A DNA stretch of 32,000 nucleotides. Origin: Kineococcus radiotolerans SRS30216 = ATCC BAA-149. GTDB taxonomy: Bacteria; Actinomycetota; Actinomycetes; Actinomycetales; Kineococcaceae. This document shows positions 1,428 to 29,479 of this stretch, in pieces. The stretch spans positions 150,573 to 182,572 of the forward strand of contig NC_009806.1 of the NCBI RefSeq assembly GCF_000017305.1, written 5' to 3'. The translations under genes and the position numbers were made by a program. A model generated the notes under the pieces. That model was given only the letters and a program-made list of their open reading frames with translations. It was not told where the DNA came from and did not search any database. Position 1 is the stretch's first letter. The number at the start of each line of letters is the position of its first letter.

Positions 1428-2606
1428 GTGAGCATCGAAGCCACCCTGTGGGCCTTGAACCTGGCACCCGTTCCGATCGACGTCAGCAAGACGAAGCAGT
1501 CCCCGTCGAGCTCGTGCGGCTTCGTGCTGGTGGCGCTGGCCAACCACGCCGACCCGGAAGGTCTGAACGCCTTCCCCTCCGTGGAGACGATCTGCCGCTA
1601 CACCCGCCTGTCGGAGCGCACCGTTCGCAGCTGCCTTGACCGGCTCGAGGCCGAAGGCATCATCCGTCCCTGCGACCCCGCCATCGTCGCCGCGAAGATC
1701 AAGCGGGGTGACAGACGACCCAATGGGTACGACCTGATGGTCGACCGCTTCCGGGAGGACCTGTCGGACGAAGAGCTGGTCAACATCGCCAGGAGCAACA
1801 CTCTGCTGCGTCCGTTCATCGCCAGCTACCGCCCTGACCTGGGCATTTACCCACGGGGTGCAACGGCTGCACCCCGTGAGACGCCAGCGCCACGGGGTGC
1901 AATGGCTGCACCCCGTGCGATGACGCCGAAGACACGGGGTGCAATGGCTGCACCCCGTGAGGAGGCGCTTCAAGCCGACGGGGTGCAAGTGTTTCCGTCA
2001 CGGGGTGCAGCCATTGCACCCGAACCGTCCTTGAACCCCCCTACTGAAGACAGCTACGTAACGTCCACGTCGGAACGTGGCGGGGCTGTGGATAACTCAA
2101 GCGGACAGCGCATCGGTGATGACCCGGCACACCCTCCAGCGACAGCTGCTCTCGAGGGCAGCTCGCCGGCCGCCGGTGACGTGGTCTTCGTCGCGATCGA
2201 CGAGGACGAGGTCGAACGCACGTTGCTGCACCTGCCAGACCGCCTCCGCCCAACCCTGGCCGAGGCAATGCGTCTGCGGCAGCTCATCGTCCAGCGGATG
2301 CAGCGCGGCTGGACCAGGGAAGCGATCCTGGCGGCGGTCGAAAGACGCCTTCGCCCAGGGGGGACGTTGAACAACCCCTGCGGCTTGTTCGCCAGGATCC
2401 TGGTGCCGCTGGACGAGCCACCATCGCAGCAGACTGCTCCGGAGGCCGTCTCGGTTGCGGTCGAGGAGGACCCCTGGTGCGGGGAGTGCGACAAGACCAG
2501 CCGGCGCGTCCTGGACGACCAAGGCTTCCCCGACTACACGCTGCCCCCGTGCACTGACTGTGCCCAGCTGAGCTTCGCCCACCACATGGAGCGAGGTGCA
2601 TCGTGA
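1428..2606 (+). CDS. Helix-turn-helix replication-initiator-like protein of an integrated or plasmid-like element
   Basis: GTG at 1428 with GAGG upstream. The N-terminal winged HTH (FVLVALANHADPEGLNAFPSVETICRYTRLSERTVRSCLDRLEAEGII) resembles HTH_36/Rep-type domains. The C-terminal PWCGECD...PPCTDC Cys cluster is recalled from actinobacterial element proteins. The part of ORF 1284-2606 upstream of 1428 looks non-coding. Confidence 0.6.
   Translation: MSIEATLWALNLAPVPIDVSKTKQSPSSSCGFVLVALANHADPEGLNAFPSVETICRYTRLSERTVRSCLDRLEAEGIIRPCDPAIVAAKIKRGDRRPNGYDLMVDRFREDLSDEELVNIARSNTLLRPFIASYRPDLGIYPRGATAAPRETPAPRGAMAAPRAMTPKTRGAMAAPREEALQADGVQVFPSRGAAIAPEPSLNPPTEDSYVTSTSERGGAVDNSSGQRIGDDPAHPPATAALEGSSPAAGDVVFVAIDEDEVERTLLHLPDRLRPTLAEAMRLRQLIVQRMQRGWTREAILAAVERRLRPGGTLNNPCGLFARILVPLDEPPSQQTAPEAVSVAVEEDPWCGECDKTSRRVLDDQGFPDYTLPPCTDCAQLSFAHHMERGAS
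1852..2022. repeat. Array of 27-bp perfect palindromes CACGGGGTGCA-N5-TGCACCCCGTG inside the rep-like CDS
   Basis: Copies at 1852-1878, 1891-1917 and 1933-1959, a half-site at 1978-1988 and a degenerate copy at 1999-2022. Arms are 11 bp and the spacer is 5 nt. Confidence 0.9.
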
Positions 2607-3850
2607 CCCTCGACGCCAACCGTCTCGAACCGGTCGACTCCCTTCAACCCGGGGGCGCGGCTGAGGAAGTCCGCGACATCGTGCTGCTGGGATCGACTGG
2701 ATCCGTTGGCACGCAGGCCGTCGACGTCGTAGCGCGCAACCGCGACCGCTTCCGGGTCGTCGGCCTCGCCGCCGGCGGCCGCCGCCTGCAGATCCTGGCC
2801 GAGCAGACCCTGGACCTGCAGCCCGCGGTGGTCGCCGTGGCCCGCGGCGGGGCTGAGGAGGACTTCCGCGCCGCCCTCCAGCAGGCCGCAGATGCCCGGG
2901 GTCTGCGCGCGGGCCAGTGGCCCGCTCCCGAGGTCCTGACCGGTGCGGCGGGGGTCGAGCAGGTCGCGGCGTGGCCGGCGCACACCGTGCTGAACGCCGT
3001 TGACGGCGCCCTGGGTCTGGCCTCCACGATGGGCGTCCTGCGCGCTGGCAGCGTCTTGGCCCTGGCCAACAAGGAGTCCCTGATCGTGGGGGGCCGCTTC
3101 GTCACCGAGGCTGCCGCTCCGGGGCAGATCGTGCCGGTCGACTCCGAGCACTCCGCGATCGCCCAGGCGCTGCGTTCTGGGACCCGCGCCGAGGTCGCTC
3201 AGCTGGTCATCACCGCCACTGGCGGTCCCTTCCGCGGCCGCACCCGCGCGCAGCTGGCCGACGTCAGCGTGGCGCAGGCCATGGCGCACCCGACGTGGTC
3301 GATGGGTCAGGTCATCACCATCAACTCCTCCACCCTGATCAACAAGGGCCTGGAGGTCATCGAAGCCCACCACCTCTTCGCCCTGGACTTCGACCAGATC
3401 GCCGTGGTGGGGCATCCGCAGTCCCGCATCCACTCGATGGTCGAGTTCGTCGACGGCTCCACCATCGCCCAGGTCAGCCCCCCGGACATGCGCCTGGCCA
3501 TCTCCCTGGGCTTGGGCTGGCCCGAGCGGGTCCCCGCCGCGGCGCAGACCTTCGACTGGACCCAGCCCGAGACGTGGGACCTCTTCCCGCTGGATCACGA
3601 GACCTTCCCCGCGGTGCAGCTGGCCTACCAGGTGGGCCGGGCCGGGGGCAGTGCGCCGGCGGTCTACAACGCGGCCAACGAGGTCTGTGTGCGGGCCTTC
3701 ATCGATCGGCGTCTGCCGTGGCTGGGCATCGTCGACACCGTCGCGCGGGTGGTCGCTGACCTTGGCGACCCGGCCGTGGCCAACCTCGACGACGTCTTGG
3801 CCGCTGATGCGTGGGCGCGGCGACGCTCTAATGAATTCGTGGAGGTATGA
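2603..3850 (+). CDS. dxr: 1-deoxy-D-xylulose 5-phosphate reductoisomerase
   Basis: LLGSTGSVGTQAVDV (NADPH site), LANKESLI, PVDSEHSAI, TATGGPFRG and HPTWSMGQVITINSSTLINKGLEVIEAHHLF are all canonical Dxr motifs. The GTG start overlaps the preceding stop (GTGA); the exact start is uncertain. Confidence 0.9.
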   Translation: MTLDANRLEPVDSLQPGGAAEEVRDIVLLGSTGSVGTQAVDVVARNRDRFRVVGLAAGGRRLQILAEQTLDLQPAVVAVARGGAEEDFRAALQQAADARGLRAGQWPAPEVLTGAAGVEQVAAWPAHTVLNAVDGALGLASTMGVLRAGSVLALANKESLIVGGRFVTEAAAPGQIVPVDSEHSAIAQALRSGTRAEVAQLVITATGGPFRGRTRAQLADVSVAQAMAHPTWSMGQVITINSSTLINKGLEVIEAHHLFALDFDQIAVVGHPQSRIHSMVEFVDGSTIAQVSPPDMRLAISLGLGWPERVPAAAQTFDWTQPETWDLFPLDHETFPAVQLAYQVGRAGGSAPAVYNAANEVCVRAFIDRRLPWLGIVDTVARVVADLGDPAVANLDDVLAADAWARRRSNEFVEV

Positions 3851-3982
3851 CCGGCAGGTCGGACTTATCGTCAACGAAGTGAGTGACTACCCCGCTGTGC
3901 CTCAGGCGTCCTGGAAAGCATGAACGCACCCACCGCACCCATCTGAGTGATCACGTCTTAGGTTCAATGCAGCGCCATTCCG

Positions 3983-4561
3983 ATGCAGCAGGGCATGACC
4001 CCACTCGCCCGCCGCCTAACTGCCGCGCTTGTGACCGCTGCTGGCATAGGTGCAGTGATGCTGTCGCCAGCTAACGCTGCCGCACCAGATCCTCGATGGG
4101 AGACAGCGCGTCTCATCAACGTCGACCGCGCAGCCCACGGCCTGGCGTCGCTGCAGCGCGAGGCGCACGTGGACGCGCTAGCCCAGGAGTGGGCTCAGCA
4201 CATCATCGAGACCGACGACTACAACCACCGGACCAACCTTAACGACGACATCATCCCGGGCATGTGGATGGGCGGAGAGACGCTGGCCATGTTCTGGGTA
4301 CCCAGTGGTGAGCCCATCAGCCCTTCCAGGACCGTCCAGGCGTGGATCGACAGCGAGCGCCATCATCATGTCCTGCTCCACGACCAGGCCACCTTCATCG
4401 GAGTCGGGGTGAGCTGCTCCTGGGAGTGGTGCGTCTACGTGGCCAACGTCTCTAGGGTCAACCCCTACTGGAAGGGCGCTCCGTTGACGGTCCAGATTGT
4501 GCCCGACCCCACCATGAAGCCCGTGGTCGTCCAGCGCGGTGCCCGGAAGGTCCGTCACTGA
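3983..4561 (+). CDS. Secreted CAP/SCP (PR-1-like) domain protein
   Basis: N-terminal signal peptide (LTAALVTAAGIGAVMLSPANA-AAP). The body resembles bacterial CAP-domain proteins (INVDRAAHGL..L.....L...A..W........H). Confidence 0.55.
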   Translation: MQQGMTPLARRLTAALVTAAGIGAVMLSPANAAAPDPRWETARLINVDRAAHGLASLQREAHVDALAQEWAQHIIETDDYNHRTNLNDDIIPGMWMGGETLAMFWVPSGEPISPSRTVQAWIDSERHHHVLLHDQATFIGVGVSCSWEWCVYVANVSRVNPYWKGAPLTVQIVPDPTMKPVVVQRGARKVRH

Positions 4562-4604
4562 GAGCTTCCTGCGGACTGTCCGGGGCTGGTGACAGACTCA
4601 GATC

Positions 4605-5453
4605 ATGAGCACAGAGCCCGCTGAGTCCGCAGAGCCCTCCTGGGAGGAGCAGCTCACTGACCCGGTCGGCTACGGCCTGTCGGAGACAGAGGCTCAGCAG
4701 ATCCGCAACGAGATCATGATCGGCAAGACCGCGATGCTCCTGCAGAGGCGCGGTCAAGACCAGGCAGCGGCTCTGATGCTCGACGTGCAGGGCATCGATT
4801 ACTACTCCTACTTCCTCGACGGGCGAGACCCCTGGGACGACAAGGCCCATGTGACGGTGGCTCAGATCGATGTCGAGACCTACCTCCTGCCGAAGTTCAG
4901 CGAGGATCTGCAAGAGCAGATCCGTGAGGCCATGCACGTCGTGGCTACGCGGGAGCACCGGTCCGTGAATGCCCTGGAGCTGCGCGAGGTCCTTCCGGAG
5001 GTCGGTGAGGACTGGCGCCAGCAGCTCTCCCGTGAGCTGGCCACGGAGCGGCCCACCAACCAGGCGCGCAAGGTGCGTCTTGAGTCTGGTGCTATCCAGC
5101 GGGACGGGCTCTTCTTGACCAACCTCTGGGAGCAGCGCATCTATACGACGTTGCTGCAGGTGCAGGCGGAGATGCCAGACACCGAGACCATCAACATCGC
5201 GCCCCTGGTGGGGATGCGGGTCAAGGGCCACACCTACGAGCCGGACGTCTTGATCACCTACAAGGGCTTCGCCGGGGTCATCGAGGTGGATGGTCCTCAC
5301 CACTCCGGCAGGCGCGCTGCTGACGGCTCCCGAGACCGCCTGCTCAAGAAGGGCGGCATTAAAGTCCTTGAGCGCATCACGGTGGAGGACCTGGAGACGC
5401 GGGAGTCCGCCAGGAAGTTCGTGGACGATTTCCTGGCACAGCTCGGCCGGTGA
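4605..5453 (+). CDS. Hypothetical protein with a C-terminal PD-(D/E)XK (DUF559/Vsr-like) nuclease-fold domain
   Basis: YEPDVLITYKGFAGVIEVDGPHHSGRRAADGSRDRLLKKGGIKVLERI matches the D...E-x-D-G...H...D..R...L...G..V.R pattern of DUF559-type endonuclease domains. Confidence 0.5.
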   Translation: MSTEPAESAEPSWEEQLTDPVGYGLSETEAQQIRNEIMIGKTAMLLQRRGQDQAAALMLDVQGIDYYSYFLDGRDPWDDKAHVTVAQIDVETYLLPKFSEDLQEQIREAMHVVATREHRSVNALELREVLPEVGEDWRQQLSRELATERPTNQARKVRLESGAIQRDGLFLTNLWEQRIYTTLLQVQAEMPDTETINIAPLVGMRVKGHTYEPDVLITYKGFAGVIEVDGPHHSGRRAADGSRDRLLKKGGIKVLERITVEDLETRESARKFVDDFLAQLGR

Positions 5454-13835: not shown

Positions 13836-13871
13836 CACCCGGCGGCCGCGGGACGCCGCGGCCGCCGGGTG
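13836..13871 (-). terminator. 16-bp perfect GC-rich palindromic stem-loop directly after gene 13879-14292
   Basis: CACCCGGCGGCCGCGG-GACG-CCGCGGCCGCCGGGTG. It begins 8 nt past the stop and has no U-tract. Confidence 0.55.
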
Positions 13872-15238: not shown

Positions 15239-15266
15239 CCGGCCGCCGCGTCACCGCGGCGGCCGG
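15239..15266 (-). terminator. 12-bp perfect GC palindrome with a 4-nt loop, after gene 15277-16116
   Basis: CCGGCCGCCGCG-TCAC-CGCGGCGGCCGG, 10 nt past the stop codon. Confidence 0.5.
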
Positions 15267-15276
15267 GGCGTGCAGG

Positions 15277-28894: not shown

Positions 28895-29479
28895 CTACAG
28901 CTCCAGAGCGGTGACACGAGCTCGGCGTCGACCGCGGTGATCGCGGTCGACGACCACCCGCAGCGCCATTGCCGTGAACCGAGCGCCTGTCCGCAGGATG
29001 ACGGCCGCCTCGTAGACACCGGCCCCGACGTGGTGCAGGTGCACGCTCTTGACGACCGGCGTCACCAGTCCCGCCATGGGCTGAGCGACCCCAGGAGCGC
29101 ACAGCCGGCGCTCGCGGGCGGCCAGGAGCTGCTGACGCCGCGAGACCGTCTGGTAGACCTCCGGACTGCACCAGCGCAGGAGCTGCTGGCGGGGGCGGCG
29201 GCTGGCGAAGACCCCCAGGTAGACGATCATCCATCGCCGCACCCAGTGCTCGACCTCTTCCATGTCCTGAGACGCCACGCCGGCCCCCGGTGGACGAGCA
29301 GGCGCCACGTCCATCGAGAGCACGAACTGCCCCTCGCACTGGGAAGCCTCGCCGAGCGGAGACCTCTCCTCACGAGGTGCTCTGCGGTGGACGTCGCTGA
29401 AGACGACCTGTCGGCTCTCCTCCCGCTGCTTGTCCTGCTGCCTGACGTACTGGCGAGCTGTGCTCTGGATCGTGTCCAC
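28895..29479 (-). CDS. Rv3235-like (DUF6459-type) protein
   Basis: YLGVFASRRPRQQLLRWCSPEVYQTVSRR...AAVILRTGARFTAMALRVV...RARVTALEL follows the GxRPxxQLxRWxxPxVY ... AxAxRLE ... ctaLEL pattern I recall for the Rv3235 family. GTG at 29479. Confidence 0.5.
   Translation of the reverse strand: MDTIQSTARQYVRQQDKQREESRQVVFSDVHRRAPREERSPLGEASQCEGQFVLSMDVAPARPPGAGVASQDMEEVEHWVRRWMIVYLGVFASRRPRQQLLRWCSPEVYQTVSRRQQLLAARERRLCAPGVAQPMAGLVTPVVKSVHLHHVGAGVYEAAVILRTGARFTAMALRVVVDRDHRGRRRARVTALEL

Follow-up and report, generated by a model that had tools for sequence, protein, structure and literature searches.

The window analysed here (the whole stretch of 32,000 nucleotides (nt) from Kineococcus radiotolerans SRS30216, contig NC_009806.1, positions 150,573 to 182,572) belongs to plasmid pKRAD01 and contains a gene for a Rep-like helix-turn-helix (HTH) protein, in whose coding sequence an array of palindromes of 27 base pairs (bp) is embedded. 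We conclude that this array probably provides the initiator-binding sites of a theta-type replication origin contained in the gene of its own initiator, in the manner of the O gene of phage lambda, and assisted by the host protein DnaA. A first-pass annotation, made from the letters of the window alone, had taken the repeats for iteron-like plasmid-origin sites that the HTH protein probably binds. This reading was supported by a nucleotide motif that is independent of reading frame, by the joint variation of protein domain and repeats among related loci, by a DnaA box that follows the array, and by the plasmid nature of the replicon.

Anatomy of the array

Three perfect palindromes of the form CACGGGGTGCA-N5-TGCACCCCGTG start at 1852, 1891 and 1933, that is 39 and 42 bp apart, exactly as the first-pass annotation had described them. 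The lone half-site that follows, earlier placed at 1978-1988, is GACGGGGTGCA at 1977-1987 and has one mismatch. The element noted as a degenerate copy at 1999-2022 is indeed a further copy of the unit, but it is better described as an inverted one, at 1999-2021, in which the right arm is shortened. The elements of the locus, in order along the window, are as follows.

1428-2606, + strand: initiator (Rep-like) gene, 392 residues, GTG start, with HTH_36 and PHROG matches
1428-1847, + strand: N-terminal winged-helix DNA-binding domain, about residues 1-140 (AlphaFold2 predicted local distance difference test, pLDDT, about 90; HTH_36)
1852-1878, strand not applicable: iteron 1, perfect palindrome CACGGGGTGCA-ACGGC-TGCACCCCGTG
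1891-1917, strand not applicable: iteron 2, perfect palindrome, spacer ATGGC
1933-1959, strand not applicable: iteron 3, perfect palindrome, spacer ATGGC
1977-1987, + strand: lone half-site GACGGGGTGCA, one mismatch, 22 bp ahead of the terminal palindrome
1999-2021, strand not applicable: terminal palindrome CACGGGGTGCA-GCCAT-TGCACCC, spacer inverted and right arm shortened
2022-2041, + strand: short repeat GAACCGTCC (2022-2030) and its degenerate copy GAACCCCCC (2033-2041), adjoining the last iteron
2054-2080, strand not applicable: ACGT-rich block, four ACGT in 27 nt, between the iterons and the DnaA box
2087-2095, + strand: DnaA box TGTGGATAA, the reverse complement of TTATCCACA, a perfect match and the only one in the window
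2193-2603, + strand: C-terminal helical domain (residues 256-325) and CxxC...CxxC zinc-ribbon-like end (residues 348-388), pLDDT 80-95

The clustering of the palindromes was far beyond chance expectation. The exact 11-mer arm occurred seven times within 1852-2009 and nowhere else in the 32 kb, and three of the four perfect 11-N5-11 palindromes of the whole window were in the array. The fourth, GTCGACCGCGG-N5-CCGCGGTCGAC at 28926-28952, is within a DUF6459-family gene and is unrelated in sequence to the rep array. The spacer of the terminal palindrome, GCCAT, is the reverse complement of ATGGC, which shows that this unit is in the inverted orientation, and together with the third palindrome it forms a perfect inverted repeat of 24 nt. 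In the frame of the gene the successive units are translated as PRGATAAPR, PRGAMAAPR, TRGAMAAPR, DGVQ and SRGAAIAPE. The half-site at 1977-1987 is thus read as GVQ and the palindromes as RGA, in different frames.

Homologous loci and selection on the DNA

A protein search gave 241 homologues of the initiator, and 80 homologous loci were taken from sequenced actinomycete genomes, with type-A sequences as query. The comparison of homologues for presence and copy number of the palindromes, which the first-pass annotation had proposed as a check, showed that the array recurs at the same place in the gene, and that the copy number of sites varies among close relatives. About 40 of the 80 loci clustered the half-site GGGGTGCA at this position, an enrichment of about 38-fold. 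Between +300 and +750, counted from the gene start, the heptamer GGGTGCA/TGCACCC occurred 187 times (5.3 per kb); the other 888 kb of these loci held 122 occurrences (0.14 per kb).

In the alignment of the homologous proteins the linker holds the short motifs GVQxxHP, TGCN and RGAxxAPEPS, which are one nucleotide motif translated in different frames. Over the family this motif was read as GVQ (54 cases), RGA (33), xAP (about 30), LHP (18) and GCN (11), with all three frames and both orientations in use, often inside one gene. The spacings between sites of the same orientation (about 190 in total) were mostly 22 bp (88), 33 or 32 bp (44, of which 30 were 33 bp), 21 bp (16) and 44 bp (9). These are near-multiples of the helical repeat and mostly not multiples of 3, so they fit helical turns but not codons. 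The usual layout in the family is a palindrome, two lone half-sites 22 bp apart, and a terminal palindrome. In the window, the half-site at 1977 and the terminal palindrome 22 bp further on match this layout, and the terminal palindrome is the counterpart of one present in most family loci, where it is directly followed by GAACCGTCC.

Since a single motif is read in three frames and two orientations at helical spacing, selection acts on the DNA of the array and not on the peptide. Taken with the predicted disorder of the encoded linker (see below), this bears out the earlier proposal that selection works on the DNA while the peptide is tolerated as a linker. Family members also contain variant half-sites, such as CGAGGTGCA, CGAGGGGCA and CGGGGGGCA. 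Where the half-site varies, the lone half-sites change in step with the arms of the palindromes, which is predicted by a model in which a protein binds the sites but not by one in which the palindromes act as hairpins.

Several further features of the family are worth recording. The half-site variants GGGGTGCA, GAGGTGCA, GAGGGGCA and GGGGGGCA loosely track variants of the presumed recognition helix (loci L030-L083); for example, SERSVQYALR occurs with GGGGTGCA and SERSVRYALR with GAGGGGCA. A recognition code might be legible in this pairing; as phylogeny confounds it, we did not use it as evidence. Six loci (L019, L020, L023, L024, L038 and L062) have the N-terminal domain only, or an early stop, and no half-site array; these may be decayed copies or stand-alone DNA-binding derivatives. 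A 206-residue member on the chromosome of a Lentzea sp. (L042, 5968-6588) consists of the N-terminal domain and the array only. On one side of it are core genes (uvrA and others) and on the other an island that carries DUF2637, DUF3644 and GTPase genes, with no integrase within 6 kb. Chromosomal copies of this kind may be integrated elements or their remnants. Several genomes have two or three copies of a family member.

The initiator and its linker

The initiator was 100% identical to a K. radiotolerans protein annotated as 'helix-turn-helix domain-containing protein'. Its residues 33-79 matched Pfam HTH_36 (E 7e-10), and the only other Pfam match was a sub-threshold one to HTH_29; by Pfam, it is not a member of Phage_rep_O, RepA_N, DUF3631/PF12307 or Rep_3. 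It also matched the PHROG families 'replication initiation protein' and 'O-like', where the O-like matches were weak (E 1e-6 to 1e-7) and confined to the HTH region. An NCBIfam scan gave no match and a PDB sequence search no meaningful one. Foldseek searches against the PDB found generic winged helices, together with weak matches to the N-terminal domain of staphylococcal RepA (4pql, 4pt7 and 5kbj; E 0.04-0.26). Against predicted viral structures, they found many HTH proteins of phages, including 'Escherichia phage Min27 replication protein O'. The N-terminal domain had 2603 relatives at E<=1e-3 among representative proteins at 50% identity, and these relatives were found on actinobacterial plasmids, phages and chromosomal islands.

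An AlphaFold2 model of the initiator, built from 60 homologues, had pLDDT values below 50 over most of residues 151-251, which are therefore predicted to form a disordered linker. The array encodes residues 142-199, at the start of this linker and mostly within it; residues 142-150, at its N-terminal edge, still have moderate confidence in the model. The array, the short repeat and the DnaA box (residues 220-223) all encode linker between the two folded parts, residues 1-140 and 256-388. At the C-terminal end W350, C351, G352 and C354 were invariant in the homologue alignment, and C375 and C378 nearly so. We presume that the C-terminal domain serves as a module that recruits the replisome.

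Co-variation of domain and repeats in Kineococcus

Two further Kineococcus replicons contain paralogous loci, L086 and L087, that are syntenic with the window; each has a Tad-type pilus cluster, an open reading frame (ORF) of 78 residues and a rep-like gene. L087 also has a prepilin peptidase gene, as well as the three genes (ABC ATPase, exonuclease and WhiB) found downstream of rep in the window. At the same gene position as the array of the window, L087 has 4-5 copies of GACCTACCGG-N9-CCGGTAGGTC with a 36-bp period, and L086 has three copies of CCGGTGGCGGA-AAA-TCCGTCACCGG. The C-terminal parts of the proteins were clearly related to that of the window protein (BLASTP identity of 60% for L087 and 54% for L086), with similarity that begins at about residues 189-220, directly after the array, and continues to the C-terminus. 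The N-terminal domains, in contrast, were either unrelated to that of the window protein or similar over an HTH stretch of 47 residues only.

The small ORF upstream of rep is the conserved partner in this synteny.

873-1109, + strand: ORF of 78 residues, conserved syntenic partner, at the same place in L086 and L087

Its product had no Pfam, PHROG or NCBIfam match. The arrays of the window and L087 are unrelated, yet the two copies of this product share 94% identity, so it cannot be an array-specific binder. The N-terminal domain of the initiator is the only component that varies with the type of repeat, and so domain and repeats behave as one exchangeable cassette.

The surroundings of the three loci are also alike. 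In L086 and L087 the rep module is directly downstream of a Tad/type-II-secretion-like cluster (T2SSE or T2SSF, TadE, and in L087 peptidase A24). Positions 1-324 of the window hold the end of a membrane-protein gene where L087 has its prepilin peptidase A24 gene, and this membrane-protein gene is possibly a prepilin peptidase as well. The synteny of L086, L087 and the window suggests a conserved plasmid backbone on which the cassette for replication specificity has been swapped. Between the membrane-protein gene and the 78-residue ORF, a 12-bp unit, GGCTCGCACGCA, is repeated in perfect tandem at 389-491 (8.6 copies, 100% matches), and short-read assemblies of the same strain break near it. L086 has a different perfect 12-mer, GCCGCCGCCAGC, in 5.8 copies at the analogous place. 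The 12-bp tandem repeat could be an array bound by a partition protein or another protein, or a repeat that is prone to slippage.

DnaA box, short repeat and ACGT-rich block

The single DnaA-box match in the window compares to 0.11 expected. The three Kineococcus types agree in every base of the 13-mer around it, CTGTGGATAACTC, whereas the flanks diverge. Over about 1 Mb of loci, TGTGGATAA was found 24 times inside the linker region and 5 times outside. The Streptomyces-type box TGTGGACAA (31 inside, 7 outside) and the degenerate form TGTGGAYAA (55 inside, 12 outside) behaved similarly. The box is usually read as V-D-N. The base ahead of GTGGAYAA was T in 51 of 52 cases, compared to 6.6% T at third positions in these genes, and the codon to which this base belongs encodes nine different amino acids. 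These data indicate that the DnaA box is constrained at the DNA level.

In most loci the terminal palindrome is directly followed by (G)AACC(G/A)TCC in three copies, 10-12 bp apart. The form GAACCGTCC was present in 78 copies between +250 and +800, compared to 14 outside, in 54 loci and always on the + (coding) strand. Repeats of this type are read in three frames, as NRP, EPS and RTV, and they remain constant where the iteron sequence differs. The Thermobispora plasmid and the phage Kepler gene described below contain the repeat as well. At the equivalent place L087 has three GAACTCC-type 12-mers and L086 two A-rich 16-mers. The short repeat is a candidate for an element that is unwound or is recognized as single strand. 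The ACGT-rich block was kept at the DNA level in the alignment of all three Kineococcus types, despite their differing iterons, and could be the binding site of a second factor or a methylation-sensitive element.

Replicon and gene context

The genome paper describes pKRAD01 as a linear plasmid of 182,572 bp (CP000751), and the passages searched describe no origin for it (PMC2587704). A megablast search of PLSDB with positions 800-2700 gave no match. Relatives of the initiator occur in contexts of replication. On a circular Thermobispora plasmid of 145 kb the homologue immediately precedes dnaN; it holds ACGGGGTGCGAC palindromes spaced 22-23 bp apart, after which come three copies of GAACCGTCCTAT. 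In Arthrobacter phage Kepler, gp46, which is annotated as 'replication initiation protein', has AAACGGGGTGNCA at 22-bp spacing and then two copies of GAACCGTCCTT.

The window has a gene content that is usual for an actinomycete plasmid. Apart from dxr, WhiB, an ABC ATPase, an RNase_T-type exonuclease and a few enzymes, most of its genes lack a Pfam match. An integrative element, which the first-pass annotation had also considered, is unlikely, as the window contains no tRNA gene and no integrase family was found among those ORFs that were scanned against Pfam. GC skew in the window mirrors gene orientation and is therefore uninformative on the position of an origin, and a scan for promoters and terminators gave nothing useful. 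Two G+C-rich hairpins, at 13841-13868 and 15240-15267, resemble intergenic structures of the terminator type.

Downstream of the initiator gene are dxr, a gene for a secreted CAP-domain protein and a DUF559-like gene, all of which (2603-5453, with dxr complete) stand between rep and the ABC-ATPase/exonuclease/WhiB block. In L087 the same interval holds only an ORF of 174 residues, without a Pfam match. The segment 2603-5453 looks like an insertion that has given the plasmid its own copy of dxr. The GTG start of dxr overlaps the stop codon of rep (GTGA, 2603-2606).

A model for initiation and its alternatives

We propose that dimers of the N-terminal winged-helix domain would bind the 27-bp palindromes, with one monomer on each arm, and that the terminal palindrome and the half-site, which stands in helical phase with it, would take up more subunits, along one face of the helix. 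The resulting complex, similar to the lambda 'O-some', would form on DNA that itself codes for the disordered linker of the bound protein. Host DnaA would bind its box at 2087-2095, 66 bp beyond the array, and the duplex would open in the less G+C-rich segment 2022-2085, which holds the GAACCGTCC-type repeats of 11-12 bp and the ACGT block. The C-terminal helical/zinc-ribbon domain may recruit the host helicase or primase, and replication would be bidirectional and of the theta type. Streptomyces linear plasmids are reported to replicate in this way from internal origins (PMC3583192). In this scheme the N-terminal domain and the iterons would form an exchangeable specificity cassette that acts as an incompatibility determinant.

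Several observations weigh against this model. The 39- and 42-bp spacings of the three upstream palindromes are multiples of 3 and fall outside the 22- and 33-bp phasing of the family; this spacing suggests that the three arose recently by in-frame duplication. The exact GGGGTGCA is missing from about half of the 80 loci, although most of these have variant half-sites, and a few are truncated copies without any half-site. The dip in G+C content is short and reaches only about 60%, at 2001-2100; the A-rich short repeats beside the last iteron are clearer in L086 and L087 than in the window. No helicase or helicase-loader gene adjoins the initiator gene, which is followed by dxr. Most genes between 5.5 and 30 kb point toward the locus and would thus be transcribed head-on to forks leaving the origin. 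Finally, the 32 kb examined are part of a 182-kb plasmid, so another replication locus could be located elsewhere.

This last point also leaves room for a reading in which the HTH protein binds the sites for control only, either for autoregulation or for copy pairing and incompatibility, and the true origin is elsewhere on pKRAD01. The co-variation of domain and repeats reveals binding specificity and does not by itself reveal initiation, and the authors of the work on RepAM of pMEA300 suggested a regulatory role for the in-gene sites of that protein (PMC2440964). However, a phased short repeat and a DnaA box with DNA-level conservation mark origins and not operators. Homologues also lie next to dnaN on a plasmid, and those in phages bear initiator annotations. 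An operator upstream of the gene was looked for and rejected, as the promoter regions of the three paralogous systems contain no cognate sites. We consider a role confined to control unlikely. In iteron replicons, control and initiation normally share sites, and so the two readings are not exclusive. One copy of the half-site core, TGCACCCC, does occur at 1287-1294, 134 nt upstream of the rep start codon; it is probably there by chance and not as an operator, as there is no equivalent in L086, L087 or the 80 family loci.

A partition site, at which the array would be centromere-like and the HTH protein a segregation adaptor, was also considered. Plasmid centromeres, too, can be described as phased repeat arrays bound by small DNA-binding proteins, and neither a ParA nor a ParB gene that could define another such site was identified in the window. 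Against this, no gene for a partition ATPase is adjacent to the array, the PHROG and fold similarities point to replication initiators, and the DnaA box and the adjacency to dnaN point to replication. A partition role is therefore very unlikely.

The first-pass annotation had further raised the possibility of a double-strand origin, or of a single-strand origin if the palindromes are extruded as hairpins. In a rolling-circle version of this reading, the double-strand origin would be a hairpin that contains a nick site. The single strand of the array does fold far better than shuffled sequence (-74.9 kcal/mol, z = -10), and the third and fourth copies can pair as a 24-bp stem. An Rfam scan gave only miRNA-like matches, far below threshold, due to these hairpins. 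In-gene hairpins with a pC194-like nick site have been proposed for the RepAM elements (PMC2440964). However, the lone half-sites cannot fold, yet their sequence, orientation and 22-bp phasing are conserved, and they vary together with the palindrome arms among relatives. In addition, Pfam shows HTH_36 only, with neither a rolling-circle (HUH) Rep family nor DUF3631, and rolling-circle replication is deemed unsuitable above about 10-20 kb (PMC2440964), while pKRAD01 is a linear plasmid of 182 kb. A hairpin origin of either kind is thus extremely unlikely.

Equally improbable is selection on the repeats as protein or RNA, as a PRGAxAAPR linker expanded by slippage or as mRNA hairpins without a function at the DNA level: the upstream units do stand at in-frame distances, Tandem Repeats Finder does report a 42-bp repeat in 2.8 copies in the array, and strong hairpins are expected in the mRNA, but among relatives, and even within one gene, a single nucleotide motif encodes GVQ, RGA, GCN, LHP and xAP, sites typically stand at distances that 3 does not divide, half-sites that form no palindrome are conserved as well, and the encoded segment, predicted to be disordered, shows no peptide conservation beyond that imposed by the DNA motif.

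Significance

An in-gene origin bound by its own initiator, as preferred here, gives a concrete and testable prediction of the origin and initiator of pKRAD01, and this prediction extends to a sizeable family, that of the 2603 relatives of the N-terminal domain. As a computational example of a cis-element written over a coding sequence, the locus is unusually clean. The exchange of N-terminal domain and iterons as one cassette hints at how incompatibility types diversify on one plasmid backbone. For actinomycetes that are hard to manipulate genetically, a minimal replicon built on this module could provide an origin for vectors. The general understanding of replication initiation is unchanged.

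A wider claim, which we regard as possible but doubtful, is that the combination of DnaA box, phased sites and triple (G)AACC(G/A)TCC is an ancient, portable origin design of the plasmids, phages and chromosomal islands of Actinomycetota, in which the 9-mer is a new element for unwinding or for recognition of the single strand. The 9-mer could be a new kind of element because it stays constant while the iteron specificity changes (GGGGTGCA, GAGGGGCA and GGGGGGCA). If so, it would be comparable in role to DnaA-trios or to the 13-mers of oriC. Its reader would be a host factor or a conserved portion of the initiator, and it would be kept despite its translation in three frames.

Comparison with known systems

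Initiators with HTH_36 are recognized on the Paracoccus plasmids pAES7, pMARC3 and pMOS2, where the predicted origin is upstream of rep (PMC3832669). They share with the present system the Pfam domain and the combination of iterons, DnaA box and a region of lower G+C content, but their iterons are direct repeats upstream of rep, whereas here palindromes and half-sites are inside the ORF. Theta plasmids of the Rep_3/RepE/TrfA-like iteron type also have a DnaA box by the iterons, as here. Their iterons, however, are direct repeats outside the gene, while the initiator described here has no Rep_3 match and its sites are inside the ORF.

In RepA_N replicons, such as that of the staphylococcal pSK41 RepA, the iterons are central in repA, the N-terminal winged helix binds them and the C-terminal domain recruits the replisome. 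These are replicons of Firmicutes, and thus of another phylum; the initiator of pKRAD01 has no Pfam RepA_N match, and the likeness is that of a generic winged helix. Within the actinobacteria, the iterons of pSLA2 and pSCL1 are reportedly within rep1. Like pKRAD01, these are linear plasmids, with an internal iteron origin and a DNA-binding Rep1 (PMC2974207, PMC11707576, PMC3583192). They differ in that a rep2 helicase gene is beside rep1, whereas no rep2-like helicase gene is beside the gene described here. A tblastn search of PLSDB returned 10 records, none of them from Streptomyces clavuligerus or S. rochei, and a limited literature search found no description of this actinobacterial in-gene origin module.

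RepAM of pMEA300 is likewise an actinobacterial initiator with repeat sites inside its own gene. It binds multiple identical 8-bp repeats, arranged as inverted repeats, in its own coding sequence (PMC2440964), and belongs to DUF3631/PF12307 (PMC3218068). Unlike the sites described here, those of RepAM are at the 3' end of the gene, in a hairpin with a putative rolling-circle nick site. The RepAM elements are also integrative and of 13-23 kb, compared to the 182-kb linear plasmid here.

The O genes of lambdoid phages are modular: the N-terminal domain co-varies with the iterons, and the C-terminal domain is common to relatives. In lambda, as proposed here, the origin is in the middle of the initiator gene, and dyad-symmetric iterons are bound by the N-terminal domain, a binding that we infer for the initiator of pKRAD01. 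In both systems the iteron DNA encodes a tolerant linker, and the number of iterons varies and thereby adds residues. A less stable tract follows the last iteron in lambda, and the modest dip in G+C content at 2001-2100 may be its counterpart here. For lambda itself, 19-bp inverted-repeat iterons and an AT-rich tract make up the origin within O, and in Stx phages two extra iterons add 13 residues to the O protein (PMC7466680). The differences are that lambda O belongs to the Phage_rep_O family, while the initiator here matches HTH_36 only, and that a P-like helicase loader follows O where dxr follows here. The four 19-bp repeats of lambda are imperfect, compared to perfect 27-bp palindromes mixed with lone half-sites, and the present system has a conserved DnaA box within the ORF and belongs to a linear, G+C-rich plasmid of an actinobacterium. 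The array is thus most likely a well-supported new example of a known design, and not a new principle.

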